DNA of 64,000 nucleotides from Planctomycetota bacterium (GTDB lineage: Bacteria > Planctomycetota > Planctomycetia > Planctomycetales > Planctomycetaceae). The translations under genes and the position numbers were made by a program. Shown here in pieces: positions 4,557-64,000 of the stretch. The stretch's first letter is position 1, and every line of letters starts with the position of its first letter. The notes beneath the pieces were generated by a model. The model was not told the DNA's origin, did no database searches, and saw only the letters and a list, made by a program, of their open reading frames with translations. The stretch is from contig JBPOIW010000061.1 in the NCBI GenBank assembly GCA_052034165.1, positions 19,336-83,335 of the forward strand, written 5' to 3'.

Positions 4557-5534
4557 TTACCCAGCGGAAAGTAAGATTCGGGAAACGGCCTTTAGGCGAC
4601 CGACAGTCAGTGCAATCCACGGCTTGATCCGAAATCGACGAATTCCACCCAAAAGACTGCTGGTCGATTCGACGGTGAAATACAGGAGTACAAAGCCCAA
4701 CGAGGACATCGCGGAACGTCTCTGTGTACGTTTCATAACAAGATAGCGATTGTAAAGGTCATCTTCTGCGGCCACAGCCGGAGTAACACGGCCGGAAGGA
4801 GCGTGAAAATGTCCAAGCCGGGCAGTCGGACAAAAAACGATTCGCCCAATCTTTGACAACTTCAGCCCAAGATCGACATCTTCATTCATTGTGCAGCGAT
4901 GCAGGAAGAAGTCTGAAAATCCACCAACCTGATCATAGGCCGATCGGCGTATGAGGCTCATGCCAGCACCCAGCCACTCCATGCTTGTCGCGGACTTTTG
5001 AGATTCTGTAAATCCATACCGAAGAAGTGGGCCAATAACTCGTCCCTGCCATGCCCCTTCTGGAATTCGACAGAAGTAGCGCAGGTAAAAGCGCCAGGCA
5101 CGGGTAGGCATTGACCACGCCTGATTGTTGAATGTTGCACAGACTGCGACCGCAGAAGGCATCTCGTCTATCGCCCAAAGCATTTGCTCTAAGCAATCAG
5201 CTTCTAGGACCACATCGTCGTCCAGCAAAAGCAACATCTCGCCAAGAGACGCCTGGATCGCCATTCGACGTTGCCGAACAGCGTTGGGAACAGGAACTGC
5301 GATTCGACGAATCGGAATCTCACGATGCTGCCTACAAAAACATTCCAGTGATTCCTCTACGGCGGCATCGGCACTGCCATCGGCGACAATAATTTCGTCC
5401 GGCCGTCGAGATTGGGCAAAAAGCGATTCCAACAGATTGGCCAGCGACTCCGGCCGACCAATCGTTGGTACAATCACGACCACCTTGGCCATTGGCATAC
5501 CCTTACAGACTTGAGGTGAAGTCCACTCAATCAT
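4557..5534 (-). CDS. glycosyltransferase family 2
   Basis: VVIVPTIGRPESLANLLESL near the N-terminus and LLLLDDDVVLE (DxD). The start is possibly at the internal MPMAK/MAK (about 5492-5498). Confidence 0.75.
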   Translation of the reverse strand: MIEWTSPQVCKGMPMAKVVVIVPTIGRPESLANLLESLFAQSRRPDEIIVADGSADAAVEESLECFCRQHREIPIRRIAVPVPNAVRQRRMAIQASLGEMLLLLDDDVVLEADCLEQMLWAIDEMPSAVAVCATFNNQAWSMPTRAWRFYLRYFCRIPEGAWQGRVIGPLLRYGFTESQKSATSMEWLGAGMSLIRRSAYDQVGGFSDFFLHRCTMNEDVDLGLKLSKIGRIVFCPTARLGHFHAPSGRVTPAVAAEDDLYNRYLVMKRTQRRSAMSSLGFVLLYFTVESTSSLLGGIRRFRIKPWIALTVGRLKAVSRILLSAG

Positions 5535-28783: not shown

Positions 28784-30013
28784 TTAATGGCGGATAACAG
28801 CAGTTTTCAGGACGGCCCGGAATTTTTCGGCCGACTTCTCTCGCGTGAATTCAGAAAGAGCCAGTTTTCGAGCATTTTTGCCCATTTCGCTGATTCCTGA
28901 GGCGTCGTTGGCAGCCCTGCGAATTCCGTCCGCAATCGCTTTGGGCGAACCGGGCTCCACAGTCATTCCGACTTGATATTGGCCCGTCAACGTGGCCAAT
29001 TCACTGTCCGCCGGAGCATTGGTCAGATAGGGTCGGCCGGCGGCCAGGATCCCGTAGAGCTTACTGGGCATGAGACATTGGCTGAGTTCGCGAGTCAGTG
29101 GCACAAGATGGAGGTCAGCCGCGTTCAAGCTGTGAGCCAATTCAGATTTGGGCTGATAATCGAAGAATCGCACGTTGGTCAGATTCTTCCGACGAACCAT
29201 CTCAACAAGGCTTGCGCGTTGCGAACCCTGACCGACAAAGGCAAAGACAACCTGCGGCAAGTCCTGCAACAACTCCGCGGCGACAAGAAATTCCTCAAGT
29301 CTCTGCGTCAGCCCCAGGTTGCCGGAGTACATGACCACGAATTTGTCTTCGAGTCCGTGGCTGACGCGAAAGCGACTGTGTTCGAGCGGACGGACAACTT
29401 CGGGATCAGCCCAGTTGGGGACAATGTCGACCCTGTCACCATCAACACCGCCTGAGACGAGCAGACGCTTCATGTCCTCGCTAAGCACCACCATTCTGTC
29501 GCAGGATCGGTAAACGGAAAACAGTGACTTCCGCAGCCGACGAATCATCCAGTTGTTCGGAACTTTGCCGAGAGCCACGGCCACATCGGGATAGATATCC
29601 TGCAAATAACCCACCATTCTGCATCCGGTTCGCCGCTGTAACCTCCGTGCTTCAAACGGCAGCAGAAACGGGTCCGTCTCGAACACCACAACATCAGGAG
29701 CAGCACAGGATCGCAGGAACCGACGGGTGGCTCTTACAAATGAAACGTAATTGAGCGCCTTCAGCAACATGCGACTCTTGGAGAACTGCGAGTGAGCAAC
29801 GCGGTGAATCGTAACGCCATTGCGTACGGGTTCCTTCTGCCACGGAGTTTCGTCATTTGCATCCCGAACCTGATTGGGCTGACCGGCCACAACGCTGACA
29901 TCGAACGACACCTGCAGAGACTCACAGAGTTCCGTCAGTAACTGACCGGTCGCCTCCACGTCCGGCCAATAAGATCGATTCAGGAAAAGGACTTTGGGGC
30001 GGCTGTTCATCAA
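28784..30013 (-). CDS. glycosyltransferase family 4 (WcaI/WbuB-like)
   Basis: KVLFLNRSYWPDVEATGQLLTELCESL N-terminus, and the C-terminal half has VMYSGNLGLTQRLE...HLVPLTRELSQCLMPSKLYGILAAGRP. Confidence 0.75.
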   Translation of the reverse strand: MMNSRPKVLFLNRSYWPDVEATGQLLTELCESLQVSFDVSVVAGQPNQVRDANDETPWQKEPVRNGVTIHRVAHSQFSKSRMLLKALNYVSFVRATRRFLRSCAAPDVVVFETDPFLLPFEARRLQRRTGCRMVGYLQDIYPDVAVALGKVPNNWMIRRLRKSLFSVYRSCDRMVVLSEDMKRLLVSGGVDGDRVDIVPNWADPEVVRPLEHSRFRVSHGLEDKFVVMYSGNLGLTQRLEEFLVAAELLQDLPQVVFAFVGQGSQRASLVEMVRRKNLTNVRFFDYQPKSELAHSLNAADLHLVPLTRELSQCLMPSKLYGILAAGRPYLTNAPADSELATLTGQYQVGMTVEPGSPKAIADGIRRAANDASGISEMGKNARKLALSEFTREKSAEKFRAVLKTAVIRH

Positions 30014-30123
30014 TCGGTCACTTCAGATTCCAGTGAAGCTCAATCATCACTCAGAGCGGCCAACAAAACATGCGTAGTGGCTCGTCAAGTTTTGATTTGG
30101 GGGTTACGGTGGATCCCATTTTC

Positions 30124-30167
30124 GCCGACGGAGCGGCGAAACTACGTAGTCGAGCCGCTCCGTCGGC
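30124..30167. repeat. perfect 14-bp inverted repeat hairpin
   Basis: GCCGACGGAGCGGC (30124-30137) and GCCGCTCCGTCGGC (30154-30167). The outer TTTGGGGGTT...AACCCCAAA arms extend the structure. Confidence 0.8.
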
Positions 30168-30210
30168 TCGCATTGAACCCCAAATCTTGTTCTTGACAGA
30201 ACAGGAGGTA

Positions 30211-30332
30211 TCCGGATTCGTGAGAACTTGGAGCGGTTTCTGAGCTCTTACGAGCTCAGCTACGGTGTTGGTTTCTGAGCTCTCACGAGCTCAGCTACGG
30301 TGTTGTTTCTCAGCTCTCACGAGCTCAGCTAC
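30211..30332. repeat. GNRA-loop hairpin family: one plus-sense copy and three tandem minus-sense copies (period ~35 nt)
   Basis: CCGGATTC-GTGA-GAACTTGG, then CTGAGCTC-TTAC-GAGCTCAG-CTAC, CTGAGCTC-TCAC-GAGCTCAG-CTAC and CTCAGCTC-TCAC-GAGCTCAG-CTAC. Confidence 0.85.
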
Positions 30333-30825
30333 GGTTTTGCTACGGGCTCTTAGCTCAGAAGCCAAGTCCGGTTTTCGTCGCCCATCGATGCACTTCGTTC
30401 CTCTGGGTGACATCTTTTTACGCCACACATGAGCGACGCAGGCCCGTCTCACTCCGACCTTATTTTTCACGTGCAAACAGAGCCATAACAAGCACATCTC
30501 GCGCCAATTCATTGAGTGGCCTGCAATGATCAACGTTTGGGGGTCGAGGCGAGCCGATGGAGCGGCCTGGTTACTTAGCCTCTAATCACTGAGGCCCGGC
30601 CTGATACCAGCGTAACACCGGGATGTTGACGTCATCAGCCGATGGGCACTGGCCCCGGTCGAAATTCCCTGCATCTCCGACGAACTAACCGCGGCTAACA
30701 GACTATTGATTTAATCAGTCGGAACGGGTTAGCAGGCTGTCGATTTAGGCAAGCCGCGGGTGTTGTTTGCCCGATTTCGCCTTCGCCTGCGGCTCGCCGT
30801 TAAACCAAAACGCCCAATCAACCAC

Positions 30826-31010
30826 TAAGAACGGCTAACAAAACCGTAGCTGGGCTCGTGAGAGCTCAGGAACGTCTCCGAATTCTCACGAATTCGGCTA
30901 CTTGAGTAAGAACGGCTGACAAAACCGTAGCTGAGCTCGTGAGAGCTCAGAAACACCTCCGAATTCTCGCGAATCCGGCTACTTGAGTAAGTTTTGTTAG
31001 GCGTTCTAAA
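30826..31010. repeat. two tandem 81-bp units, each with a pair of GNRA-loop hairpins, bounded by inverted AGAACGSCTAACAAAAC arms
   Basis: Each unit is TAAGAACGGCT(A/G)ACAAAACC-GTAG-CTG(G/A)GCTC-GTGA-GAGCTCAG-(8 nt)-CCGAATTC-TC(A/G)C-GAAT(T/C)CGG-CTAC-TTGAG. The inverted GTTTTGTTAGGCGTTCT closes the array at 30991-31007. Confidence 0.85.
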
Positions 31011-31083: not shown

Positions 31084-33411
31084 TCAGGAGACTGAAGAAT
31101 CGTTAAGATTGTCGGATGTCGATCCCGTCAATTCTCCGGCATGATCATCGGCGTAGTACTCTCGGCCATCTTTACTGCCGTATTCGCCGTACTTGTAGTT
31201 GTAGTTCTTGTAATAGTATCGGTAGTCAGAATAACGGTAGTTGCCATAACCGTAAGCGTCTCGTTCTTCCACACCGTTGATCACAATCCCTGAGAGCGTT
31301 GCCCCGATATCACGCAGTTGCTCAATCGTTCGCCGGCCCAGATCACGCGTATGACGACTCAAACGCATGCACACCAGAACTCCGTCGACTCGAGCAGCCA
31401 CTCCGCACGGGTCCGTCACAGCAAGCACAGGAGGCGTATCGATGATGATATACTCGAACTTCTCTCGAAGCACTTGAAGAATCTGTTCGAATTGAGGACG
31501 AGCCAGCAACTCCGCCGGGTCTTTAGGACGTCTACCGCAAGGCAAAACAAAGAAATCGGAAACTGTGGTTTCCTGAATGGCATCCGTTAGCTCAGCATCG
31601 CCTCGCAATACGTCCACAAAACCAATCTTATTCTCGACTCCCGTCAATTTATGCACTTTGGGACGACGGAAGTCACTCTCGACCAGAACAGTCCGTTTTC
31701 CAGACTGAGCAAGGGACAGAGCCAAATTAAGAGCCAAGGTCGACTTTCCATCACCAGCGGCCGGACTTGTCACAGAGAGCACTCGATGACTAACGCCCAG
31801 TGCGCTAAAGCAAATGGCCGTCCGCACAGCGCGGTAGGCTTCTGCCGGCCTTGATCGCGGCAAATGCACGGAAACAGCCGTACGATCCATCAGAATCCCA
31901 TCAGGGACAGATTTCAAACGCTGCTCGGAGATGTAGGGAACGTGCCCAATGATTGGCACACCAAACTCCCGAATTATATCCTCCGGCTTGCGGAAGCTGC
32001 GGTCGGCAATCTCCACAAGGTAACCCAAGGAAAGACCGACAAATGCCCCCAAGAAAGCCCCCAGGCCCAAAAACTGGCTTAGCTTTGGAAACACAAGGTA
32101 ACCATAGCGAGCCGGAGTAAGAATCTGGGCTTTTACACCGCCCAAGTCGGCCATCACTTTGGTTTCCCGCATCTGTGCGAGCACGTCTTCAAAAAGCTTC
32201 TTCAGCCTGTCGATTTCACTGAGGCGAGAACGATCTTCATTCTCATCGCTCCCCAATGCCCTCGCCAGTCGCTCGGATTCATCAGCCTGCACCTTAAGCT
32301 CAGTCGCTTCTTTTTCGACCGACAGCAGCTCCTGTCGCAAAGACTGGACATAGACAGAAATAAAATCCTGCTGTGGAGCGTCTGTCTCATTCGGAGTGAT
32401 CCCGGCCAGAGACTCTGAGTGCTCTCGAACGAACCGAATCCTGCGATTGATCGCGGCAACCTTCGGGTGATCTTTGCCAAGCTTCTCCTCTAAGTCCGCT
32501 TGCTCGATCAGTAGCGGGAACAACGCATCCAGCATACTCTTTCCATTGGCGAACGCCTTTTCGGCATTCTTATTGGTCGCATCGCCTGCAGCGTTATTCT
32601 GGTTGGTTTTTCCGATCATCAGCAACAGCGCCTCGCGCGAACTCCCTGTTCTCATGGCTTCCTCGAGTGTCGCCAGCTCTGCCTGAAGTGCCGTTTGTCG
32701 CAACGACAGGGCAGACAACTGAGACAACAAAGCCTGCTGACGCTCACGATGCGGGTTCTTGCCATCGCTCATCAAGCCGGACTTGCCTCGGAACTCATTG
32801 TACTCCTGCTCCTTTTGCCGCAGCTCAGTATGAAGCTCTTCACGCGCACGCGTGAGCAAACTTTCCAGCTCACCGCGCGCATCCTTGTAATTCTCCATCT
32901 GCTTGCTGACGTATTCCGTCGCCACAGCATTCGCAATCCTTTCAATCTCGTCCGCACGCGACCCTTCAACCGAGATATCAACTACACTGGTATTCACAGT
33001 CCCGGTCTTCACCTTCAGCATACCGGCGATACGGTCAGCCGCCTGTTCTTCAGTGAGCCCACTCAGCAAAGACAACTGAGACAGTTCATGCTTTGAATAG
33101 GCCGGAATCAGAATACTTGGACTGGAGATAACGTAGGCCGCATCAAGCAAATCCCGATCAGACAGCATTCCGTCAAGCTTGGAATCGGAATGCCGGTGAA
33201 TCACCTGTACCAATGCCGAAGAGCGATAGTTGGGGATTTGACGGTGAAACAAAAGGTAGCCCAGGAATGTCCCCAGCAGGGCAAACACAATAACAAACGA
33301 CTTCCTGCGTTTGACGAAGCCCCAGACATCCAATCCGGCCTCCTGTTCTTCCAGATTATTGGCGGGGCCTGAAGTCGCTCCAAACATCCCAGGTATTGCA
33401 CCAGACGCCAT
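31084..33411 (-). CDS. polysaccharide co-polymerase / tyrosine autokinase (Wzc/GumC-type)
   Basis: N-terminal Wzz-like domain with a coiled coil. The C-terminal kinase has Walker A SPAAGDGKST, VLVESDFRRP and Walker B IIIDTPPVL, plus a Tyr-rich tail YGYGNYRYSDYRYYYKNYNYKYGEY. Confidence 0.85.
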   Translation of the reverse strand: MASGAIPGMFGATSGPANNLEEQEAGLDVWGFVKRRKSFVIVFALLGTFLGYLLFHRQIPNYRSSALVQVIHRHSDSKLDGMLSDRDLLDAAYVISSPSILIPAYSKHELSQLSLLSGLTEEQAADRIAGMLKVKTGTVNTSVVDISVEGSRADEIERIANAVATEYVSKQMENYKDARGELESLLTRAREELHTELRQKEQEYNEFRGKSGLMSDGKNPHRERQQALLSQLSALSLRQTALQAELATLEEAMRTGSSREALLLMIGKTNQNNAAGDATNKNAEKAFANGKSMLDALFPLLIEQADLEEKLGKDHPKVAAINRRIRFVREHSESLAGITPNETDAPQQDFISVYVQSLRQELLSVEKEATELKVQADESERLARALGSDENEDRSRLSEIDRLKKLFEDVLAQMRETKVMADLGGVKAQILTPARYGYLVFPKLSQFLGLGAFLGAFVGLSLGYLVEIADRSFRKPEDIIREFGVPIIGHVPYISEQRLKSVPDGILMDRTAVSVHLPRSRPAEAYRAVRTAICFSALGVSHRVLSVTSPAAGDGKSTLALNLALSLAQSGKRTVLVESDFRRPKVHKLTGVENKIGFVDVLRGDAELTDAIQETTVSDFFVLPCGRRPKDPAELLARPQFEQILQVLREKFEYIIIDTPPVLAVTDPCGVAARVDGVLVCMRLSRHTRDLGRRTIEQLRDIGATLSGIVINGVEERDAYGYGNYRYSDYRYYYKNYNYKYGEYGSKDGREYYADDHAGELTGSTSDNLNDSSVS

Positions 33412-39716: not shown

Positions 39717-39792
39717 GTTTGTTCAAACAAACAGGCAAATTATCCCAAAGGGTTTGCCCGATTCGTCTTAGAGTGTTTTTGCCAAGAACTTA

Positions 39793-39891
39793 GGACCAGT
39801 CCCGTAATAACTTCCGTAGCTGAAGTCGTGAGACTTCAGTCCGAACTCTCACGAGTTCGGCTACTACAGGAACTTATTTCGGGACCGTTCC
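39793..39891. mobile_element. MITE family E4 copy A (23-bp TIR GGAAC..CCCGRAATAA..TTCC, TTA flanks) carrying two GNRA hairpins
   Basis: GGACCAGTCCCGTAATAACTTCC (39793-39815) pairs with GGAACTTATTTCGGGACCGTTCC (39869-39891), 19/23 complementary. TTA at 39790-92 and 39892-94; the latter is the stop codon of the adjacent gene. Confidence 0.7.
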
Positions 39892-41592
39892 TTAGCGGGC
39901 TGCAGCATCCCACCACCAACGGCCAGACTGGCCGACGGGATTGGATTCGATGGCCTTTTTCACAACTTCGGCTGAAACCTCGAAATTGTCCGGGTTCCTG
40001 ACAACACTTCTCAAGTCGCCACGCACGCCACCCGCGACCTGGATCACGATCTCGCGGCCGTTGTAGACACGGCTACTGGCCGCCGTCATGAGTTCGGCCG
40101 GCACTTCCACAGGAGCCGGGGAATAACTGCCAGATGCACTGAGCACTTCCGGCTGCCATCCCACCTGGCGATTCAGGCCCATCGTATGAACTAACGCTGT
40201 TGCCAAGCCCAGGTCAAAGACATTTTGCAGGTCAGCAAACACGACGTCCTGACTGGACAATTCCGGCAGATGCTCTGTGAATAATCGAGCAAACTCGGTG
40301 TTGGCGTTGTCTGCTTTTCCAGTGGCCTGACGACTTCCATCTGCCGAGACCAACTGATTCTCAGACTGGCATTGGACTGCTTTGCCAGAAAATTCAAACG
40401 ATTGACGGTCGGGGGAAACCTGAATGGAGTCGTACCCGACGGTCATCCACCATCGCAGGGCATCCATGGCTGAGGCCTTGCGTTCCGCTCGGCTGAGCAG
40501 GTCAAAATAGCTCTTCATGCCCGCCGCGCCTTCGCGTTCGCCAATACCGATCAGTTTCATCTGATAGTCGGCTTCAACGATCACGCTGGCCACGCGAGAA
40601 TCCTGAGGAATCCCCTGAACGATGACGTTCTGCAGGCCCAGCATTTCCTCGAGCTTATCCGTCTCCGCGCCAACATTTCCCGAGGTCAGTTCCATCTTTG
40701 CTGCATAATCACGAACGGCTTTCACCTGTTCCGGCTTTGGATCAATCGAACATCTGAAGAAGCCAGAACCACCCTGCTCGAAGGTGCGGCTCAGAGTGAC
40801 AAGGTCGTCAAAACGAAGTGTCGGATGTCCATTCGATACACTCACGGTCCGCTGATCATCGGCATTCTTCCACGCACCTGCAGGACCACCAATGACAACA
40901 TCCTGTGAGTCTGGAAACACAAACAGGAACTGAACTTCTGTCATACCAGCGAGGCAGGCGACATCGTCTGGAATGGGCTGCCCAGCGGCCATCAGACTCT
41001 TGACATGCTGCTCCAGTCGAGGCAGTGAAACAAGACGCAGTTCTGAAGACTCCTGGACATCGTCGTTTGGATTCGCAGTTCGAGCCAGCTCGGCTGCTGC
41101 CAGCAATCGAGAGTTGTCGTATCTCATCATCAAGGCCGTAGCCATCAGCGGTGTGCCAAAAAACACTCCCTGATCAAACTGAGTGATCGTTCCGAAGTCT
41201 CCCCCGTCCTGTTCCCAGGTGGCCGGTGGGCTGGTCTGTTCAACAATCAGGTTGATCAATGTCTGGAAGTCAGTCTGAGCACCCCCGCCCGCTTCCAGTT
41301 TTTCTCGACTGACGCGAGCGCGGTCGGCAGTTTTTCTGTCCCCGGCTTTCAAAGCAGCGGCTTCAAGATTCTCGGCGGCTTTCCGGAAATCGCCTTCCTC
41401 GGCAGCCAGTCGAGCCTCCAACCTCAATCGGGAAGACTCCATTCCGGCCGTTACGGGCTTATCACTTTCACCTGCTGCGGCCACACCACTCGACGCCAGA
41501 ACCGCACAACCGAAGGCAAACGTCACGCCCCTTCGCAGGAACCGTCGGAAACGAGGACTTGAAGCGGAGAAGACGGAATCAAACAGTGGCAT
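39892..41592 (-). CDS. secreted DUF1598-like protein
   Basis: Likely start MPLFDSVF at 41592, with signal peptide FAFGCAVLASSGVAAAGE. The size and composition fit planctomycete DUF1598 proteins. The track ORF extends to 41814. Confidence 0.55.
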   Translation of the reverse strand: MPLFDSVFSASSPRFRRFLRRGVTFAFGCAVLASSGVAAAGESDKPVTAGMESSRLRLEARLAAEEGDFRKAAENLEAAALKAGDRKTADRARVSREKLEAGGGAQTDFQTLINLIVEQTSPPATWEQDGGDFGTITQFDQGVFFGTPLMATALMMRYDNSRLLAAAELARTANPNDDVQESSELRLVSLPRLEQHVKSLMAAGQPIPDDVACLAGMTEVQFLFVFPDSQDVVIGGPAGAWKNADDQRTVSVSNGHPTLRFDDLVTLSRTFEQGGSGFFRCSIDPKPEQVKAVRDYAAKMELTSGNVGAETDKLEEMLGLQNVIVQGIPQDSRVASVIVEADYQMKLIGIGEREGAAGMKSYFDLLSRAERKASAMDALRWWMTVGYDSIQVSPDRQSFEFSGKAVQCQSENQLVSADGSRQATGKADNANTEFARLFTEHLPELSSQDVVFADLQNVFDLGLATALVHTMGLNRQVGWQPEVLSASGSYSPAPVEVPAELMTAASSRVYNGREIVIQVAGGVRGDLRSVVRNPDNFEVSAEVVKKAIESNPVGQSGRWWWDAAAR

Positions 41593-49607: not shown

Positions 49608-50780
49608 ATGCGTGACAAGTTCCTTTCCTTTTCGCTTCCGCTCATCGGCGCAGAAGAAATTGACGAAGTTGTCGAGGCCCTGAAATCAGGTTGGCTCACG
49701 TCCGGCCCACGAACCCGACAATTCGAAAAGGATTTCTGTCAGGCGTTCGGATCACCTGCCGCGTTGTCATTGAACTCATGCACGGCCGGCCTGCATGTCG
49801 CTCTGAAAGTCCTCAACATCGGGCCGGGCGACGAAGTCATCACAACGCCCATGACATTTGCCGCGTCGGTGAATGTCATCGAACATGTCGGGGCCACTCC
49901 CGTCCTTGTCGATGTGGAACCCGATACTCTGAACCTGCAGCCGGATGCCGTCGAACGGGCCATCACTCCCAACACCAAGGCGGTCATCGCCGTTCACTAT
50001 GCGGGCCATCCCGTTGAACTTCATGCGCTGCGATCAATCTGTGATGAATACGATCTGCATCTGATTGAAGATGCCGCTCACGCCATCGGTGCCGCATTTG
50101 ATGGCCAACCCATCGGCGCTGGCTCGAATCTGACCGCGTTCAGCTTCTATGCGACAAAGAACCTGACAACGGGGGAAGGAGGAATGCTGACAGGTTCTGC
50201 TGAGCTTCTGGAGAGGGCTCGCATCTTCAGCCTGCATGGAATGAATCGTGAAGCCTGGAGCCGGTACTCGGCCGGTGGCAAATGGGCTTATGATATCGTG
50301 GAGCCGGGCTTCAAATACAATATGACGGATCTCCAGGCCGCGCTGGGACTACAACAGCTTCGGCGTTTCGATCACATGCAGGCTCGTCGCAGGGAAATCG
50401 TGCAGACTTATAACACTGCATTCCGGAACCATGCCTCCTTTCTGACGCCCGCGACTCGCGACCACGTCACCAACGCATGGCATCTGTATGTGCTGCGACT
50501 GAGATCTTCCGAGCTGACAATCAACCGCAATCAGTTTATCGAGGAAATGACGGCTCGAAACATCGGCACATCGGTGCACTTCATCCCGATCCACATGCAC
50601 TCATATTATCGCGACAAATACAATTACCATCCGGATGATTTCCCGGTCGCGCACGGAGCCTTTCAGAATATGCTCAGTCTGCCGCTGTCGCCTTCGATGT
50701 CGGACCAGGACGTCGCCGATGTGATCGACGCCGTCCTGGATATCCGCAGTAAATTCGCCCGCCGCAGGGCCGCCGCTTAG
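49608..50780 (+). CDS. DegT/DnrJ/EryC1/StrS family aminotransferase
   Basis: SGWLTSGPRTRQFE, DEVITTPMTFAAS, IEDAAHAIGA and the PLP-lysine block FSFYATKNLTTGEGGMLT. Confidence 0.85.
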   Translation: MRDKFLSFSLPLIGAEEIDEVVEALKSGWLTSGPRTRQFEKDFCQAFGSPAALSLNSCTAGLHVALKVLNIGPGDEVITTPMTFAASVNVIEHVGATPVLVDVEPDTLNLQPDAVERAITPNTKAVIAVHYAGHPVELHALRSICDEYDLHLIEDAAHAIGAAFDGQPIGAGSNLTAFSFYATKNLTTGEGGMLTGSAELLERARIFSLHGMNREAWSRYSAGGKWAYDIVEPGFKYNMTDLQAALGLQQLRRFDHMQARRREIVQTYNTAFRNHASFLTPATRDHVTNAWHLYVLRLRSSELTINRNQFIEEMTARNIGTSVHFIPIHMHSYYRDKYNYHPDDFPVAHGAFQNMLSLPLSPSMSDQDVADVIDAVLDIRSKFARRRAAA

Positions 50781-51223
50781 GAACAATCCCGAAATAAGTT
50801 CCGTTTATCCCAACCCGAACCGTCACGGCGTGTTGATTTAATCATAACCCGATGCATCAGTTTTGAAGTTGCGCTGTTCGACAATTGGGGAGATCAACAG
50901 AGCGAAAACACAGGGAATTATCACAACCCGACGCGTCAGCGAGGGATTGAAGGAAACATTGATAAAACGCAAATGCTCTATCCCTCACTCACGTTTCGGG
51001 TTGGGATGGCGGCAATTGCGCAACTTCAAAATGCATCAGCGAGGGATTGTTGTGGAAAAACGCGGCAACTTTTATTCCTCACTGACGTTTCGGGTTGTGA
51101 AAACCCACTAAATCAACAGGCCGGTCAGCGAGAGATCCAGATGTTGTGCAAAATCCCTCGCTGACGCATCGGGTTGGGATTTCAAGGCGTGGAAACCTCC
51201 GGAATTTATTCCGGGACCGTTCC
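50780..51223. mobile_element. MITE family E4 copy B (composite; contains E3 hairpin words and a nested E2)
   Basis: GGAACAATCCCGAAATAAGTTCC (50780-50802) pairs with GGAATTTATTCCGGGACCGTTCC (51201-51223), 19/23 complementary. TTA at 50777-79 and 51224-26. The left end abuts the TAG stop of the aminotransferase. Confidence 0.7.
50861..51031. mobile_element. MITE family E2 copy B (171 bp), perfect 8-bp target duplication TGCATCAG
   Basis: TTTTGAAGTTGCGC (50861-74) and GCGCAACTTCAAAA (51018-31), flanked by TGCATCAG at 50853-60 and 51032-39. The interrupted target reconstitutes the E3 word AACCCGATGCATCAGCGAGGGATT. Confidence 0.85.
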
Positions 51224-51259
51224 TTAACTCTGGGTGAAGGCTCGCACCTCCACAGGAGC

Positions 51260-56973: not shown

Positions 56974-57003
56974 AAGCTCTTAACACCTGAACGACATCAC
57001 CAA

Positions 57004-57384
57004 TCAAACGCGACGGCGTTTGGGCGGCCTGCAACCATTATGCGGCAGCGGAGTTATGTCTTCAATTGACCGAATCGCCATCCCGGAAGCCTGAAGACCT
57101 GTGATAGCACTCTCCCGGCCAGCACCAGGACCTTTAACCCGGACTTCAACTTCGCGGACACCGACTTTTGAAGCCTTTTCCGCGACAATCTCGGCCGCTC
57201 GCTGCGCCGCAAACGGAGTACTCTTGCGAGAACCCTTGAACCCGACCGTTCCAGCAGTCGCCCAGCAAAGCACATCGCCCGCAGCGTCTGTCATGGTCAC
57301 GATCGTGTTATTGAACGTCGCTTTGATGTATACGACGCCCTTATTGACATTACGACGGACTTTTTTCTTCTTAACTTTCGCCAC
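57004..57384 (-). CDS. rpsK: 30S ribosomal protein S11
   Basis: [46 protein letters not shown]. Confidence 0.95.
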
Positions 57385-57427
57385 GCTTTTGTCTCACTCA
57401 CAAACGAACCATTGACCCGTGATAAGC

Positions 57428-57814
57428 TTAGTGCTTCAGATCCTTAACGCCCTTTTTCCCAGCAACCGTCTTCTTCCGCCCCTTCCGAGTCCTCGCGTTC
57501 GTCTTAGTTCTCTGACCACGCACAGGCAAGCCCTTACGGTGTCGCACTCCGCGGTAACACTGAATCTCGCGAAGCCGCCCGATGTCCTGTTGAATCTTGC
57601 GACGCAGAGGACCTTCGACGGTGTAATTCTTGTCCAGATGCGTCGTGATCCGACTCACCTCATCTTCGCTCAACTCACCTGCACGCACATGGGGATCTAC
57701 ACCCAGTTCGTAACAAATCTGAATCGCAAGAAAGGGACCAATACCATACAAGTAGCTCAACGAAATATACGTTGGCTTATTGTTGGGAATGTCGACACCA
57801 AGCACGCGGGGCAT
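57428..57814 (-). CDS. rpsM: 30S ribosomal protein S13
   Basis: MPRVLGVDIPNNKPTYISLSYLYGIG...YRGVRHRKGLPVRGQRTKTNARTRKG. The start is at 57814. Confidence 0.95.
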   Translation of the reverse strand: MPRVLGVDIPNNKPTYISLSYLYGIGPFLAIQICYELGVDPHVRAGELSEDEVSRITTHLDKNYTVEGPLRRKIQQDIGRLREIQCYRGVRHRKGLPVRGQRTKTNARTRKGRKKTVAGKKGVKDLKH

Positions 57815-57849
57815 TTCAAATCTCCACAACCACTCTTTAAATCAATCAA

Positions 57850-57966
57850 TCAGCCCTGACGCTGCTTATGTCGCGGATTCGACGAACAAATCACGAAAAT
57901 CTTGCCCTGACGTCGCACCAGCTTGCAGGCATCACAAATGCGTTTAACGCTTGAACGAACCTTCAT
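57850..57966 (-). CDS. rpmJ: 50S ribosomal protein L36 (zinc-binding type)
   Basis: Below the ORF-track size cutoff. My translation is [38 protein letters not shown]. Confidence 0.9.
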
Positions 57967-57996
57967 TGTATCACCACTCTTCAAGCAGCAATCGCG

Positions 57997-59367
57997 CTAC
58001 TTATCTGAATCAAGCAAACCAGGATAGTTTCGCATCACCAAGTGAGAATCAATCTTCTGCACAAGGTCCAGCGCCACAGAAACAATAATCAAGAGACCAG
58101 TACCGCCGAAGAAACTCGCAGTGACGAAGTCCTGAGTCACCGTGTTTGAAACAATCGTAGGAATAACTGCGATCACCGCAAGGAACGCTGCACCGACGTA
58201 AGTGATCCGAAGCATGACCTGCTCAAGATGACTCGCGGTCCGCTGTCCCGGACGATAACCCGGAATGAAACTCCCGTTATCCTTAAGGTTCTCCGCCATT
58301 TCCTTGGGATTAAAAGTAATCGCCGTCCAGAAATAGCAGAAAAAGTAAATCAACACGATGTAGGCAAGACTATACACGAAACCTTGACCAGGAGCAAACG
58401 CCGCACCGATCGCCCCAAACACTCCGCCCACTCCAGAGTCAGGTCCAAACATAGAACCAACCTGAGTGAACACAAAATAGGGAATCATCAACAGACTGCT
58501 GGAAAAAATGATCGGCATCACACCAGACTGGTTAACCCGCAATGGTAACCACTGCCGATTCCCGCCCATCACTCTCCGACCACGGACATGCTTCGCACTC
58601 TGGATCGGAATCCGCCGCTGCCCTTGCGTGATAAACACAACCACAGCGATTACACACACGAACAAAGCGGCCATGACGAGCAAGCGCTCAATGCCATATT
58701 GACTGCCGATCTGCAAGCCGCTGGACTGGATTCCAGCTATCCACTTGCTGGCTATCTCCGGCATCCTGGCCAAAATCCCTGCCATAATCAGAAGACTAAT
58801 CCCATTACCAATTCCATAGGCGTCGATCTGCTCCCCGATCCACATGAGGAACACAGTCCCAGCCGTCATCAGGATAGTGCCAAACACTATCCAACCCAAA
58901 CTGTCATACTCTTGCAGAATCGCCGCCTGCCCGGGTGCACCCCCGCGCATCGACCAAAGCAACCCAAAACTCTGCAAAACACACACAAACACCGTGGCGT
59001 ATCTGGTGTACTCATTCAACCTGCGCCGACCTGACTCGCCCTCTTTCTGCAACGCCTCAAGCGGCGGGTAAACCGTGCCCAAGAGCTGAAACACGATCGA
59101 GGCGGTTATGTAGGGCATGATGCCCAAGCCAAACACGGACCCACTTTGCAATGATGACGCGGAGAATACCGACACCACCTGCAACAGACCCGCCACCCCA
59201 GTTGTACCACTCTGGGCATTCTCCATCACATTCTTGATGGCGTCATGATCCATGAACGGCAATGTGATGTGAAACCCAAGCCGATAAACCGCGAGAAGGA
59301 CGACAGTGAGAACAATCTTTCGGCGCAGCTCAGGGATGCGAAAAATCGTCAGCAGCTTTGCAAACAT
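57997..59367 (-). CDS. secY: preprotein translocase subunit SecY
   Basis: Likely start MFAKLLTIFRIPELRRKI. About 10 TM segments, with GIMPYITASIVFQLL and GGNRQWLPLRVNQSGVMPIIFSSSLL. Confidence 0.95.
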   Translation of the reverse strand: MFAKLLTIFRIPELRRKIVLTVVLLAVYRLGFHITLPFMDHDAIKNVMENAQSGTTGVAGLLQVVSVFSASSLQSGSVFGLGIMPYITASIVFQLLGTVYPPLEALQKEGESGRRRLNEYTRYATVFVCVLQSFGLLWSMRGGAPGQAAILQEYDSLGWIVFGTILMTAGTVFLMWIGEQIDAYGIGNGISLLIMAGILARMPEIASKWIAGIQSSGLQIGSQYGIERLLVMAALFVCVIAVVVFITQGQRRIPIQSAKHVRGRRVMGGNRQWLPLRVNQSGVMPIIFSSSLLMIPYFVFTQVGSMFGPDSGVGGVFGAIGAAFAPGQGFVYSLAYIVLIYFFCYFWTAITFNPKEMAENLKDNGSFIPGYRPGQRTASHLEQVMLRITYVGAAFLAVIAVIPTIVSNTVTQDFVTASFFGGTGLLIIVSVALDLVQKIDSHLVMRNYPGLLDSDK

Positions 59368-59400
59368 TCCGCTCCCCTTTCGTGTCTGAACAACCAAATA

Positions 59401-59862
59401 CTAGAAGCTACCAACGGGAATAACGCTGTATGTCCCGCCAGCGGCACTGATCTTTGCTTCGGCCGATGCCGAGAACCGATGTGCAGAAATCTTGAGACCC
59501 TTACTCAGCTCGCCGTCGCCGAGAACCTTAAGCTCTTCGAACGAACTCCTGACAAGCCCCTTCTGCACCAGCAACTCGGGAGTAATCTCACTGCCAGCAT
59601 CAAAAGCTTCGTTCAACTCACCAACGTTAATCACCGCAACATCAGCGGCGAAAAAGTTGTTACTGAAACCCCGTTTGGCCACCCGACGGAACAGAGGCAT
59701 CTGCCCGCCCTGAAAGCCCAAGCGTCGAGAAGAGCCAGATCGGCTAAAGAATCCCTTATGACCACGCCCGGATGTCTTACCGTGACCAGAACCCGTACCG
59801 CGCCCGATGCGCTTGCGCGCCTTACGAGGCTCATTACCACTCTGCACATCATTCAAAATCAC
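59401..59862 (-). CDS. rplO: 50S ribosomal protein L15
   Basis: [22 protein letters not shown]...[18 protein letters not shown]. Confidence 0.95.
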
Positions 59863-60356
59863 AGCGACACCCCTCGCAGTCGTTCAATTTGCTCACGCGT
59901 TCGAAGCTTCTTCAGAGCTTCCATCGTAGCCTTCACCAAGTTCAACGGGTTCGTCGAACCGTAGGCTTTTGTCAAAATGTCAGTAATACCAACAGCCTCA
60001 ACGACGGATCGCACACAGTCCCCCGCAATGATGCCCGTACCAGGCTTCGCTGGCAGCAGCAGAACTCGCGACGAACGAAACTCCCCGATTACCTGATGCG
60101 GGATCGTGGTGCCAACCACGGCGACGCTCATCTGGCTTCGGTTTGACTGCTTGGTCGCTTTGTCCACTGCCAAAGGAACTTCGATGGCTTTCCCATAGCC
60201 ATAACCAACTCGGCCATGACCGTCGCCCGTAACCACTAAAGCGGCAAAGCTAAAACGGCGACCGCCCTTGACGACGCATGCACACCGGCGAATCTGCACG
60301 ACTCGCTCACCGGAATCATTTTTTACTTCTGCGGACGACACCCGACACCTCGCCAA
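59859..60356 (-). CDS. rpsE: 30S ribosomal protein S5
   Basis: [40 protein letters not shown]. It overlaps the rplO start by 4 nt, so there is no rpmD between them. Confidence 0.95.
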
Positions 60357-60385
60357 ACAGCATAGACAAAACTAATAATTGAATC

Positions 60386-60757
60386 TTAGAAATCGAGCCC
60401 TGATTCGCGGGCCGCTTCGGCAAGGGCAGCCACTCGTCCATGGTAAGCAAACCGACCACGGTCAAACACGACCTGAGTAATCCCAGACTTCACTGCACGC
60501 TCAGCCAGAAGCTGTCCGACTTTTCGCGCTGCATCCTGATCGCCGCCTACTCCACCAGGACCGGCAATCTCCGACTCGACCGTACTGGCCGACACCAAAG
60601 TCTTGCCCGCAGCATCGTCAATGATCTGAGCATACATGTGACGATTGCTACGAAATACACTGAGTCGCAGACGACCATGAGAATCTCGGACAACCCGATT
60701 TCGCACTCGATACTGGCGACGCTTCTGCTGCAATGCAAGACGGGAACGAACACTCAT
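60386..60757 (-). CDS. rplR: 50S ribosomal protein L18
   Basis: [19 protein letters not shown]...[28 protein letters not shown]. Confidence 0.95.
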
Positions 60758-60786
60758 CGCTAAACTCGACTGTTAGTATACAAAAA

Positions 60787-61329
60787 TCACTTGGAACCGA
60801 AAGCCTTACCCGCTTTACGTCGAACGAACTCGTCCTGATAACGGATCCCCTTGCCCTTGTAAGGCTCAGGCGGGCGTACAGAACGAATCTCTGCCGCGAA
60901 CTGACCACATGCCTGCTTGTTCGAGCTCTTGATGATCACATGCGTGGCGTCGGGGACTTCGCACTTAACTCCCGCAGGAACCTCAAGCACAATCTTGTTG
61001 GCGAAGCCGACCTGCAGAGTCAATTTCGTGCCTGAGATGCTGGCGTTATACCCAACACCCTGAATCTCCAGTTTCTTCTCGAAGGGCTTCACAACCCCCG
61101 AAACCATATTCTGAATCAAACTGCGCGTCAGCCCATGCAACGCTCGGCTGCTGCGCTTGTCATCCGGTCGGCTAACCAAAACGGCCGAACCATCAACAGA
61201 AACCATCATCAACGGATGAACCGCGAGTAATAGCTCTCCCGCAGGCCCTTTCGCCGTCACTTGATTGCCGCTAACTTCGACCTTTACACCGCCTGGTATG
61301 GCGACCGGCTTTTTACCAATTCTCGACAT
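60787..61329 (-). CDS. rplF: 50S ribosomal protein L6
   Basis: MSRIGKKPVAIPGGVKVEV...PPEPYKGKGIRY. Confidence 0.95.
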   Translation of the reverse strand: MSRIGKKPVAIPGGVKVEVSGNQVTAKGPAGELLLAVHPLMMVSVDGSAVLVSRPDDKRSSRALHGLTRSLIQNMVSGVVKPFEKKLEIQGVGYNASISGTKLTLQVGFANKIVLEVPAGVKCEVPDATHVIIKSSNKQACGQFAAEIRSVRPPEPYKGKGIRYQDEFVRRKAGKAFGSK

Positions 61330-61363
61330 GACAATTCACCCACCGTGAAAACAACCGGCTACC

Positions 61364-61759
61364 CTACCAAACCTGACAAACAAGCTCACCACCGACGCCC
61401 AACTTCCTGGCTTCACGGTTGCTGAGAACGCCCTTAGACGTCGACAAGACGGCTATGCCCGTTCCTTGTCGAATGTCCTTCATTTCGGAAACAGCACAGT
61501 AGACGCGGCAGCCAGGCTTCGAAACTCTCTCAATGTGCTGAATCACATGCTCACCGGCAGGACCATACTTCAGGTTTACTCGCAACGTCTTGCCGCACTC
61601 CGCATCCAGAACCTCATAGTCCCAGACGAACCCTTCACGCTGAAGCGCCTCAACGATGCTCACTTTAATCCTGGAACAAGGTACATCGACGAAGGGACGC
61701 TCAACCTGGACGCCATTTCGGATTCGTGTCAACAAGTCTGCAATCGGATCTGTCATCAT
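61364..61759 (-). CDS. rpsH: 30S ribosomal protein S8
   Basis: MTDPIADLLTRIRNG...GIAVLSTSKGVLSNREARKLGVGGELVCQVW. Confidence 0.95.
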   Translation of the reverse strand: MMTDPIADLLTRIRNGVQVERPFVDVPCSRIKVSIVEALQREGFVWDYEVLDAECGKTLRVNLKYGPAGEHVIQHIERVSKPGCRVYCAVSEMKDIRQGTGIAVLSTSKGVLSNREARKLGVGGELVCQVW

Positions 61760-61777
61760 AATACACCAACCCTTGTT

Positions 61778-61963
61778 CTACCAACTGGCCTTCTTGACAC
61801 CCGGGATCAAACCATCCAGCGCCAGGTTTCTGAAGCAAATTCTGCACACCTTGAACTTGCGATAAACCGCCCGCGGTCTGCCACACAGCATGCACCGATG
61901 CTCCTGGCGACTGCTAAACTTCGGAGTTCGGTTTGCCTTCTCAATTTTTGCTTTGCTTGCCAT
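61778..61963 (-). CDS. rpsN: 30S ribosomal protein S14 type Z
   Basis: 61 aa with a CxxC...CxxC zinc motif ([23 protein letters not shown]). Confidence 0.95.
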
Positions 61964-62002
61964 TGCCTGATCTCATGACCCATTTACACGCGAAATGTCA
62001 AT

Positions 62003-62548
62003 CTATTCTTCTGTCTTGAAAGGCATCCCAAATGCCTTCAACAATGCACGCCCATCATCGTCTGTAACAGCCGTCGTCACAAAGGTGATGTTCATACCCT
62101 GTGTCGCTGTTACCGTCTCCGGATCGATCTCAGGAAACACCAACTGCTCCGTCAGGCCACAGTTATAGTTCCCATTCCCGTCGAAACCCTTAGGGCTCAC
62201 ACCCCGAAAGTCTCTGACTCGAGGAAGCGCCAACGTGATGAGCCGCTCCAAAAAATCGTACATTCTCTTGCTTCGTAGCGTGACTCGGCAACCAATAGGC
62301 TGACCTTCACGCAATCGAAAACCGGAAACCGACTTCCGAGCTCGCGTGATCTGAGCCTTCTGCCCAGCCAACTGCGTCAGTTGCTCAACCGCCTGATCAA
62401 GTCGCTTCCGATCGTTGACGGCCTCGCCAACCCCCATGCTGACGACGATCTTCTGCAGTCTCGGCACAGCATGGATGTTCGACTTACCGAGCGACGCCTG
62501 CAGCTCGGGAATAATTCGGCTACGATACTCTTCGTGCAACCGGGTCAT
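62003..62548 (-). CDS. rplE: 50S ribosomal protein L5
   Basis: NIHAVPRLQKIVVSMGVGEA...RDFRGVSPKGFDGNGNYNCGLTEQLVFPEI. Confidence 0.95.
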   Translation of the reverse strand: MTRLHEEYRSRIIPELQASLGKSNIHAVPRLQKIVVSMGVGEAVNDRKRLDQAVEQLTQLAGQKAQITRARKSVSGFRLREGQPIGCRVTLRSKRMYDFLERLITLALPRVRDFRGVSPKGFDGNGNYNCGLTEQLVFPEIDPETVTATQGMNITFVTTAVTDDDGRALLKAFGMPFKTEE

Positions 62549-62585
62549 GTCTGATCACTCTTGAAAATAACCGCCGAAAAAATCC

Positions 62586-62954
62586 CTAAACCACTTCGCT
62601 CGCGAGGCTAACGATCTTCATGTAACGCCGATCCCGCAACTCACGAGCCACAGCGCCGAAAATACGCGTCCCTTTCGGGTTGCCATCATTGTCTACAATC
62701 ACGATCGCATTCCGGTCAAACTTAACGTAAGAACCGTCTGGCCGCCGCGCTGCCTTGCGAGTGCGGACCACCACACCCTTAACAACTGAGCCCGACTTGA
62801 TCGCACTGCCGGCGAGAGCCTTCTGGACGCTCACAACAACAATGTCACCTAAACCTGCGTACCGACGACGAGTACCACCCAGCACCTTAATGCACCGAGC
62901 CGTCTTTGCTCCGGAATTGTCCGCAACATCGAGAAGTGTCTGCATCTGTATCAT
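62586..62954 (-). CDS. rplN: 50S ribosomal protein L14
   Basis: [27 protein letters not shown]...[13 protein letters not shown]. Confidence 0.95.
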
Positions 62955-62988
62955 GATTCAACCCCACGGAGCCTGGCATAACGCCACG

Positions 62989-63252
62989 CTACTCACCAAT
63001 GGCCGGAATAGCGGATGTACTGACCACCCGAACAAGCTCCCAACGCTTGAGCTTCGACTTCGGCGGACACTCTACAATCTCTACGGTGTCGCCCTTCTTG
63101 GCCACACCCTGCTCGTCATGCACATGACAAACCGTACGACCACGAATGATCTTCCCATACTTCGGGTGTCTCATTCGGCGATCAATCTCGACTCGCACCG
63201 TATTCGGACGCGGATCACGCGCAACAACCCCAACTAATGTCTTTCTCATCAC
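62989..63252 (-). CDS. rpsQ: 30S ribosomal protein S17
   Basis: RKTLVGVVARDPRPNTVRVEIDRRMRHPKYGKIIRGRTVCHVHDE. Confidence 0.95.
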   Translation of the reverse strand: MMRKTLVGVVARDPRPNTVRVEIDRRMRHPKYGKIIRGRTVCHVHDEQGVAKKGDTVEIVECPPKSKLKRWELVRVVSTSAIPAIGE

Positions 63253-63262
63253 ACCGCCCCAA

Positions 63263-63463
63263 TCAAACTCTAGAAAGTTCTCGCTCGCGTTGAACAGTGA
63301 AGATCCGCGCGATGTCCCGACGCAACTTCTTCACATTACTTGGGACGTCATTCCGCTCAGTAGCCGCCTGAACACGCAACCGAAACAGCGATTGCTGAGC
63401 CTCCCGCAGCTCATGCTGCAGTTGCTCGTCAGACATCTCCCGAATTGCGCTCGACTTTGCCAT
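63263..63463 (-). CDS. rpmC: 50S ribosomal protein L29
   Basis: IREMSDEQLQHELREAQQSLFRLRVQAA. Confidence 0.9.
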   Translation of the reverse strand: MAKSSAIREMSDEQLQHELREAQQSLFRLRVQAATERNDVPSNVKKLRRDIARIFTVQRERELSRV

Positions 63464-63474
63464 TGCAACCTCAA

Positions 63475-63894: not shown

Positions 63895-64000
63895 CTGCAG
63901 TCTCCTCGTTCGAATAATCGCCCAGATCAATCCACACTTTCACACCAATGATCCCCATCGCCGTCTTCGACTCGGCAAAGCCATAGTCGATATGCCGACG
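63833..64000 (-). CDS. rpsC: 30S ribosomal protein S3, C-terminal part (N-terminus beyond window edge)
   Basis: Not in the track because it runs off the window. My translation ...RRHIDYGFAESKTAMGIIGVKVWIDLGDYSNEETADGANAKAGQASKKPKRAYKR* has its stop at 63833-63835 and overlaps the rplP start. Confidence 0.75.
   Translation of the reverse strand, partial: RRHIDYGFAESKTAMGIIGVKVWIDLGDYSNEETADGANAKAGQASKKPKRAYKR

Follow-up and report, generated by a model that had tools for sequence, protein, structure and literature searches.

A 64-kb stretch of planctomycete DNA (contig JBPOIW010000061.1; hereafter the window) contains ten 24-nt hairpin units, each made up of a tag tetranucleotide and two complementary 8-nt arms separated by a 4-nt loop. 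We consider it likely that these hairpins are repetitive extragenic palindromic (REP) elements of the GTAG superfamily with a REP-associated tyrosine transposase (RAYT) as partner, which occur mostly as inverted doublets with the tags outside (HH dimers, REPIN-like) and are read as folded single-stranded DNA (ssDNA). The REP identity had been missed in an earlier reading of the window (the sequence-only reading), which described the hairpins and attributed their pattern to selection on a local single-stranded hairpin and not to simple duplication. That attribution was supported by covariation recovered without any demand for pairing, by a strand rule for G:T pairs and by the spread of the family over the phylum.

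Stem pairing, G:T pairs and spread of the family

All ten units were confirmed by reading of the sequence and by a degenerate pattern search, and every coordinate previously given for them was correct. The search, in which up to 3 mismatches were allowed, returned 11 matches from the window, while 0.29 were expected and the maximum obtained in 100 shuffles was 2. The eleventh match (5312-5335) was rejected as chance noise; its arms do not pair and it has no fold. The copies are given below in the order tag, arm, loop, arm.

30208-30231, plus strand: REP copy, GTAT CCGGATTC GTGA GAACTTGG; degenerate, with a mutated tag, two G:T pairs and an A:C mismatch; left partner in the tag-outside doublet that it forms with 30240-30263
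30240-30263, minus strand: REP copy, GTAG CTGAGCTC GTAA GAGCTCAG
30275-30298, minus strand: REP copy, GTAG CTGAGCTC GTGA GAGCTCAG; tandem copy of a 35-nt unit
30309-30332, minus strand: REP copy, GTAG CTGAGCTC GTGA GAGCTGAG; G:G mismatch at pair 3; third tandem unit
30235-30338, minus strand: three tandem 34-35-nt units with one REP copy per unit, at spacings of 35 and 34 nt
30846-30869, plus strand: REP copy, GTAG CTGGGCTC GTGA GAGCTCAG; one G:T (G53:T66); left partner of the first doublet
30878-30901, minus strand: REP copy, GTAG CCGAATTC GTGA GAATTCGG; right partner of the first doublet
30927-30950, plus strand: REP copy, GTAG CTGAGCTC GTGA GAGCTCAG; left partner of the second doublet
30959-30982, minus strand: REP copy, GTAG CCGGATTC GCGA GAATTCGG; one G:T; right partner of the second doublet
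39816-39839, plus strand: REP copy, GTAG CTGAAGTC GTGA GACTTCAG; left partner; the spacer of this doublet is 1 nt long
39841-39864, minus strand: REP copy, GTAG CCGAACTC GTGA GAGTTCGG; right partner of the 39816 doublet

The GTAG tag, ascribed before to every copy, is present in nine of the ten, as 30208-30231 carries GTAT. Likewise, the two stems of each paired unit had been said to differ at two positions, which holds for 39816-39864, while the stems of the units at 30846-30982 differ at 3-4 positions; every difference is compensated within its own hairpin, also where 3-4 positions differ. Across the window copies, 97.2% of the stem cells are paired and 12 cells are altered on both sides, which was reached by 0 of 500 shuffles, and pairing dropped to 18-49% when the 3′ partner was slid out of register. 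These values bear out the claim that the two arms change together.

A scan with the pattern GTAGCYGRNNTCGTGAGANNYCRG, using one genome per species, yielded at least 119 loci, compared with about 17 matches expected by chance (our own arithmetic from the information content of the pattern). In the copies derived by this pattern, the two stem positions which it leaves free were Watson-Crick paired in 163 of 166 and 161 of 166 cases, and T-A, C-G, G-C and A-T were all present at stem position 6. At the same loci, 94 additional copies, unselected by the pattern, showed all four pair types at position 2. Moreover, a model built from the sequences of the ten window copies, with no demand for pairing, was run on DNA flanking RAYT genes, which had been chosen via the protein. 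This model gave 212 matches representing 46 distinct sequences, in which 98.5% of the cells pair and 39 cells are altered on both sides; again, 0 of 500 shuffles reached these values.

The loci found by the pattern scan belong nearly all to Planctomycetota, including Pirellulaceae, Planctomycetaceae, Gemmataceae, Thermoguttaceae, Schlesneria, Singulisphaera and others. As many planctomycete families are represented among the matches listed, the hairpins form an old, phylum-wide family, which contradicts the possibility that the copies are all recent identical duplicates.

At the two stem positions where the pattern freely permitted Y opposite R, we counted 54 G:T and 5 A:C pairs on the tag strand. 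The confinement of G:T wobbles to the GTAG strand, proposed from the window copies, is thus found in the window and in the family alike. Where the tag strand runs sense to the flanking genes, the copies had 15 G:T and 2 A:C pairs; antisense copies had 11 and 0, respectively. Within inverted doublets, 16 G:T pairs occurred in left partners and 18 in right partners, with 0 A:C in both. As G:T pairs are present in both partners, each hairpin is constrained on its own strand, i.e. the two partners on opposite DNA strands. As they follow the tag in both partners and in sense as well as antisense copies, a single transcript cannot explain the pattern; an enzyme which reads tag and hairpin on ssDNA of either strand can. 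The sequence-only reading had left the choice between an RNA and an ssDNA hairpin. Since the G:T rule holds in both orientations, the evidence favours the ssDNA part and not the RNA part, i.e. a constraint at the DNA rather than the RNA level.

It is hardly credible that the hairpins are palindromic sites for a protein binding double-stranded DNA, or else chance matches or recent duplicates. The units are perfect or near-perfect palindromes, and some copies are identical, as such explanations would have it, but a duplex-binding dimer would conserve sequence and not pairing, and here four pair types swap at two positions. In addition, a G:T asymmetry is meaningless in duplex DNA, and the unpaired GTAG tag renders the unit asymmetric. 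The 11 pattern matches in place of 0.29 and the occurrence in many planctomycete families speak against chance and recent duplication, respectively.

With 24-nt units, an 8-bp stem and a 4-nt loop, the hairpins lie within the dimensions of the GTAG superfamily (20-40 bp, stem 6-13 bp), and they possess its unpaired GTAG end (GTAG in 9 of 10, GTAT in 1 of 10). Complementary stem changes and G:T pairs divide them into sub-families as in this superfamily, whose REPs were sorted into 24 families (Di Nocera et al. 2013, PMC3733652); most of these comprise sub-families that differ by alternative, complementary residues in the stem, and G:T pairing is frequent (PMC3733652). Dimers and clusters are present as inverted pairs and, in the window, as tandem units of 35 nt and 81 nt. 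Neighbouring copies have their tags outside in 92 of 106 pairs, with gaps of 1-35 nt, and related genomes give several loci each. The partners of a doublet nearly always differ in stem. A REPIN in the strict sense, namely one long hairpin formed between REP and REP, was not found; the predicted folds comprise two local hairpins, and any long stem is formed by the outer arms.

Two further observations were made close to the first hairpins of the window. The segment 30339-30363 (GCTACGGGCTCTTAGCTCAGAAGCC), beside the three tandem minus-strand copies, resembles a decayed plus-strand copy (CTGGGCTC...GAGCTCAG) with the loop region deleted. At 30120-30171 lies a second pair of GTAG hairpins with the tags inside, TTTCGCCG-ACGGAG-CGGCGAAA-CTAC followed by GTAG-TCGAGCCG-CTCCGT-CGGCTCG. 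Its 8-bp stems differ with compensation, its 6-nt loops are identical, and as a single strand the pair folds into one long hairpin (z -4.8). Further copies of this pair were sought in the window and in about 1.1 Mb of related loci, and none was found.

The probable transposase partner and the hairpin loop

Rhodopirellula baltica carries the REP families GTAG-20 and GTAG-21, the RAYT rba11751 and a "plethora" of tyrosine transposases (PMC3733652). We took the sequence of rba11751 (RB11751) from the supplementary alignment of that paper and found 863 homologues of about 190 residues, which are about 60% identical across the phylum; the HUH motif (PDHIH) does not vary among them, nor does the tyrosine of YIARNPERAGLV. 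The family matched NCBIfam REP_Tyr_transpos (REP-associated tyrosine transposase) with E-values of 1.7e-11 to 2.2e-7. E. coli TnpAREP (4ER8) ranked first in a profile search of PDB sequences (E 0.052). It was also the sole strong fold match of an AlphaFold model of the RAYT (pLDDT 91.7; TM 0.63, E 2.9e-5), followed by the transposases of IS200, IS608 and ISDra2; 4ER8 shows TnpAREP bound to a REP hairpin. The protein thus combines the HUH motif, a catalytic tyrosine in a YIxxNP-type motif and a predicted Y1 fold, as known for RAYT/TnpAREP enzymes.

The DNA of RAYT loci, comprising five genes from genomes and eighty from metagenomes, links this enzyme with the hairpins. At least two GTAG-tagged 8-bp hairpins sharing one loop were present in 72 of 84 loci, and hairpins stood on both sides of the gene in 62 of the 74 loci with enough flank. 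Their density amounted to 6.0 per kb up to 400 nt from the RAYT gene, compared with 0.37 per kb beyond. The flanking stems are those of the window, including CCGAACTC, CCGAATTC, CCGGATTC, CTGAACTC, CCGAAGTC and others. Hairpins with GTGA or GTAA loops flank the RAYT gene at seven loci (L150, L158, L162, L182, L183, L197 and L204), and at L182 two of them, GTAGCCGAACTCGTGAGAGTTCGG and GTAGCCGAATTCGTGAGAATTCGG, are identical to the window copies 39841-39864 and 30878-30901, respectively. A REPtron, i.e. a RAYT gene flanked by the same REPs, therefore exists in DNA related to the window. The source genome presumably encodes a GTGA-type RAYT of its own, and such a RAYT would bind and cleave the hairpins described here.

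The loops were consistently of the GNRA type in the window, as stated before (GTGA in eight copies, GTAA and GCGA in one each). As a constraint, GNRA did not stand, judged by the refuting condition which the sequence-only reading had set for itself: in the 94 pattern-unselected copies from the same genomes we found GTGA (44), GCCA (10), GTAA (10), GTCA (8), GCGA (3) and GCAA (3), so that 18 of 94 loops are GCCA or GTCA. Beside RAYT genes the counts were GCCA 171, GCAA 67, GTGA 33, GCCAA 25, GTAA 20, GTCAA 17, GCTA 14 and GTTA 9. Since GCCA, GTCA, GCTA, GTTA and 5-nt loops are common family-wide, the hairpins are no GNRA-tetraloop family; GNRA characterises the GTGA sub-family together with its one-step mutants and is no general rule. 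A first G, a last A and the closing T-C/G-A are kept across the different loops. The rule for the loop is G-Y-N-A, set by the lineage of the transposase: the loop is identical within each RAYT locus and varies among loci (L120-L204), and the loop classes group in a neighbour-joining tree of the RAYT proteins. Mean identity is 72% within the GCAA clade vs 60% between clades, and 79% vs 54% for the GTCAA clade. Several loop types co-occur in the genomes derived by the pattern, and the stems at the RAYT loci L120-L204 keep one consensus.

These loops bear on an alternative explanation, according to which the hairpins are selected mainly as RNA, namely as GNRA-capped stem-loops serving as 3′-end stabilisers, terminators or small RNAs, with a secondary link to the transposase. 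The GNRA loops of all ten window copies would suit such a function, but in the family as a whole the loops are G-Y-N-A, they track the RAYT lineage, and GCCA is the commonest. The genomic position of the hairpins is also compatible with RNA: coding sequence is avoided, with 26% of the copies in crude open reading frames (ORFs) vs 85% coding, and the density between convergent genes (about 2.1 per kb) modestly exceeds that between divergent ones (about 1.1 per kb). The window doublets at 39816 and 30846-30982 are found 28-220 nt 3′ of the stop codon of the upstream gene, and a syntenic relative has classical terminators at the corresponding intergenic sites. Against a role in transcripts, there is no significant sense bias, with 48 vs 37 copies overall and 10 vs 5 among isolated copies, and a T run follows one of the ten window copies, which is no more than in shuffles. 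A promoter and terminator scan of the intergenic region found nothing above shuffles, with one terminator-like site vs 1.4 expected. G:T pairing was taken as a sign of RNA function by Di Nocera et al. (PMC3733652); here, G:T follows the tag and not transcription, and any one transcript would carry A:C in half of the imperfect hairpins. In view of these results, we regard an RNA function as the main target of selection as unlikely.

Rfam family RF01687, Acido-Lenti-1 (Weinberg et al. 2010, PMC2864571), is identical in shape to the hairpins, with an 8-bp stem and a 4-nt loop followed by CUA. It is filed as RNA from Acidobacteria and Lentisphaerae, and its model contains an extra 3′ part lacking in the window hairpins, which score 12.7-22.1 bits, all on the CTAC strand, vs a gathering score of 37. 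An Rfam search, which the sequence-only reading had proposed, gave no family reaching its gathering threshold in the window; at permissive E-values it returned only these sub-threshold Acido-Lenti-1 matches (30240-30272, 30878-30907 and 30919-30950) and spurious microRNA models. The consensus of RF01687 is CCUAGCGC-UGAC-GCGCUAGG-CUA, and its opposite strand reads TAG, an 8-bp stem and a GTCA loop. Judged from this consensus, Acido-Lenti-1 may not be an RNA gene but a REP of the GTAG type from Acidobacteria and Lentisphaerae.

Composite elements and mobility

All ten window copies are extragenic and are spread over two intergenic regions. The first set occupies a gap of 1,070 nt, which is flanked by two minus-strand genes, a Wzz/AAA_31-like gene (31084-33411) and one for a group-1 glycosyltransferase (28784-30013). 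The second set lies in the gap that separates the DUF1598 gene from a PAPS reductase gene, and the two gaps belong to a polysaccharide-synthesis cluster. Doublets in these gaps are enclosed in composites resembling miniature inverted-repeat transposable elements (MITEs):

39790-39894, no strand assigned: MITE-like composite of TTA, a 23-nt left arm (39793-39815), the doublet 39816-39864, a 23-nt right arm (39869-39891) and TTA
30826-31009, no strand assigned: composite of TAA, the left arm GAACGGCTAACAAAAC, both doublets 30846-30982, the right arm GTTTTGTTAGGCGTTC (30991-31006) and TAA

The arms match at 19 of 23 positions in 39790-39894 and at 15 of 16 in 30826-31009, the latter value and the TAA repeats being read from the sequence. 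In 30826-31009 an 81-nt unit is duplicated in tandem (30826-30906 and 30907-30987, 91% identical). Folded, 39790-39894 forms a long stem that ends in two local hairpins (z -5.7 and -8.5). Copies of this composite occur in other Planctomycetaceae genomes, with 80-93% identity over 107-113 nt in L013, L106, L028 and L107; the copy in L076 is 86% identical over 103 nt.

The right-hand TTA of 39790-39894 is the stop codon of the DUF1598 gene (TAA on the minus strand), which is exactly the point of insertion. The corresponding site is empty, with a single TAA, in the metagenomic relative L208, whose PAPS reductase is 96% identical at the protein level. L208 reads CCCGATAATTCGGGG, whereas the window minus strand reads CCCGC TAA (99 nt) TAA GTTCTTGG. 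The proposal of a MITE around 39820-39860 was therefore confirmed by the terminal inverted repeats, the TTA/TAA direct repeats and the empty site; arms and 3-nt direct repeats at both ends were found for all three composites. A third element with 39816-type 23-nt arms (GGAACAATCCCGAAATAAGTTCC ... GGAATTTATTCCGGGACCGTTCC) and TTA direct repeats, 450 nt in length, lies at 50777-51226 between two convergent genes. In place of GTAG hairpins, its interior contains palindromic repeats of another family (AACCCGAYGCRTCAGCGAGGGAT and its inverse, in three pairs or more).

Other relatives also differ in hairpin content. No copy was found in 20.8 kb of the syntenic relative L213 (84% identity) or in 5.8 kb of L208; in L213 (18173-18315) a 143-nt spacer with a classical terminator corresponds to the 1,070-nt gap of the window. 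A GTGA doublet is located at a different junction in L209 (5341-5407), between the GT4 and Wzy genes. Such differences in presence and absence among relatives indicate that units are gained and lost over the time in which species diverge. Within the 1,070-nt gap, the REP clusters account for about 300 nt, and about 490 nt between them (30333-30825) were unmatched in the compared DNA and contain no convincing ORF.

The composites raise the question whether the hairpins are merely the inner part of ordinary MITEs, which are moved by a DDE transposase via the outer terminal inverted repeats and have no enzyme of their own. The three window doublets lie between terminal inverted repeats that start with GGAMC or GAACG and are flanked by TTA/TAA, a relative has the empty site with a single TAA, and the same arms bound the different element at 50777-51226. 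Elsewhere, 18 of 87 doublets had flanks more palindromic than the 99th percentile of controls by local alignment, which is a real excess and a minority; an ungapped test of palindromic flanks had given a null result, as offsets are missed by this method. About two thirds to four fifths of the doublets, however, lack palindromic flanks, and the hairpins flanking RAYT genes have no such arms and are 16 times denser there than elsewhere. Moreover, the hairpin core is conserved phylum-wide while the arms vary among composites, and covariation and strand rule belong to the core. A composite with abutting arms and no doublet was sought, and none was found. We consider it very unlikely that the hairpins are merely such inner parts of MITEs. 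Terminal inverted repeats with a 3-nt TWA duplication are a DDE-type signature, and the window doublets have probably hitch-hiked.

Several points weigh against the interpretation of the hairpins as REPs read by a RAYT. The window composites bear the signature of a DDE-type and not of a Y1 enzyme, and these particular copies may have moved without a RAYT. The counts of G:T pairs and of compensated cells are counts of sequences and not of independent events, and some G:T variants, e.g. CCGGATTC/GAATTCGG, are widespread lineages. The RAYT family scored 31-44 bits with NCBIfam NF047646 vs a curated cut-off of 80, and Pfam Y1_Tnp (PF01797) matched weakly with 11-17 bits vs a cut-off of 23; by these sub-cut-off scores the planctomycete RAYTs are a divergent branch. 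With six published RAYT/TIRYT sequences as queries, tblastn revealed no RAYT gene in the 64-kb window and no RB11751-type RAYT in the 119 pattern loci, where the sole match was a short TIRYT-like fragment in L031 (query rba2408). RAYT-free loci of this kind are expected if a RAYT gene occurs once or a few times per genome, and the RAYT link rests on related DNA and not on the source genome. Finally, a replication-strand bias of unpaired copies was not seen (15 vs 13) with a crude GC-skew proxy on 8-kb fragments.

Some features of the window lie beside these questions. Its GC skew is negative over the entire length, and the minus strand is probably the leading strand. A minus-strand ribosomal-protein operon extends over 57000-64000, of which L5 alone was confirmed in the window, the neighbours being deduced from L205 and L206. 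The PAPS reductase is 75% identical to that of Fuerstiella marisgermanici, by which the source belongs to the Planctomycetaceae.

Relation to known systems and possible mechanism

The closest known counterpart are the GTAG-21 REPs of R. baltica SH1 with RB11751 (PMC3733652), which share the GTAG tag, the 8-bp stem C-Y-G-R-A-N-T-C, the tag-outside dimers and the host phylum; RB11751 also represents the RAYT family that is flanked by hairpins identical to those of the window. Intragenic GTAG-21 copies encode the peptides VTGFARIR, RILANPA and SRIRQEF (PMC3733652), which appear to back-translate to GTAG CCGGATTC GCCA(A) GAATTCGG. In Rhodopirellula sp. P2 (L124), the DNA flanking the RAYT gene contains this unit, and we derived the GTAG-21 consensus from the published peptides and this DNA and not from the figure of the paper. 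Its stem is that of the window copy 30959-30982 and its loop is different, GCCA or GCCAA in place of the GTGA, GTAA and GCGA of the window. The window family is thus a sister of the known GTAG-21 family.

Biochemical data, with which the strand rule found here agrees, are available for the closest analogue studied, that of Stenotrophomonas maltophilia, whose SMAG REPs of the perfect-palindrome group (REPtron Sm, PMC8266576) resemble the window hairpins in the perfect 8-bp stem, the short loop starting with G and the 5′ GTAG. S. maltophilia REPs are bound and cut as single strands only, and on the GTAG strand only; with the inverse strand, neither binding nor cleavage takes place (Corneloup et al. 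2021, PMC8266576). [quoted passage not shown] The S. maltophilia loop has 3 nt vs 4 nt here, the host is a gammaproteobacterium, and the biochemistry comes from there whereas the window hairpins are known by sequence.

The E. coli REP/BIME system with TnpAREP (Ton-Hoang et al. 2012, PMC3333891; 4ER8) likewise has GTAG-tagged hairpins in alternating orientation and an HUH/Y1 enzyme; its REPs, however, are longer imperfect palindromes with a bulge, and its enzyme is only about 16% identical to the planctomycete RAYT. In Pseudomonas fluorescens SBW25, the repeated, RAYT-linked unit is the REPIN, which consists of two inverted REPs separated by a short spacer (Bertels and Rainey 2011, PMC3116915), as in the doublets described here. 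The planctomycete partners, in contrast, are mostly unlike in stem, so that two local hairpins are predicted per single strand and not one REP-REP hairpin. The subterminal hairpins of IS200/IS605 elements (IS608, ISDra2) share the single-strand hairpin, the 5′ guide tetranucleotide and the Y1 HUH transposase, but they bound an element which carries the transposase, whereas the hairpins studied here are free-standing and multicopy with the enzyme gene elsewhere.

Based on these similarities, one can propose that each unit acts as folded ssDNA on its own GTAG strand. The cognate RAYT (TnpAREP, an HUH/Y1 enzyme) would read the 5′ GTAG tag, a perfect 8-bp stem of nearly any sequence and a short loop G...A, and it would cut and rejoin single strands close by, by which the units would be maintained and spread. 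With stem pairing required and stem sequence largely free, the stems would drift via compensated changes, and G:T pairs would be tolerated on the read strand only. The loop would be the lineage-specific part, GTGA or GTAA here and GCCA, GCAA, GTCAA and others in sister lineages. The three window doublets would probably have arrived as part of small composites bounded by terminal inverted repeats and by TWA direct repeats of 3 nt.

The hairpins are an ordinary REP family, and naming them as such prevents confusion with a new structured RNA. The phylum-wide stem consensus, the lineage-specific loops, the tag-following G:T pairs in both partners and the position inside MITE-like composites add slightly to what the literature consulted describes. 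With a co-varying stem, a loop that tracks the enzyme lineage and G:T pairs that follow the tag, the planctomycete data represent a natural experiment, and an unusually clean one, on the reading of a hairpin by its RAYT. The REP doublets nested in MITE-like composites and the empty site at a stop codon illustrate how repeats of this kind can hitch-hike and can take the place of terminators between genes.

A more far-reaching reading, which we put forward tentatively and hold to be somewhat less probable than its opposite, is that one REP-RAYT system has persisted over much of Planctomycetota with the stem consensus C-Y-G-R-A-N-T-C almost unchanged. The loop would then be a recognition code (GCCA, GCAA, GTGA/GTAA, GTCAA, GCTA, GTTA and others) which has diversified with the RAYT lineage, with several codes per genome, and the partners of a doublet would be kept different for local folding. 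If true, Planctomycetota would offer, across the phylum, a natural series in which the enzymes of an ssDNA transposase family are matched with their hairpins.

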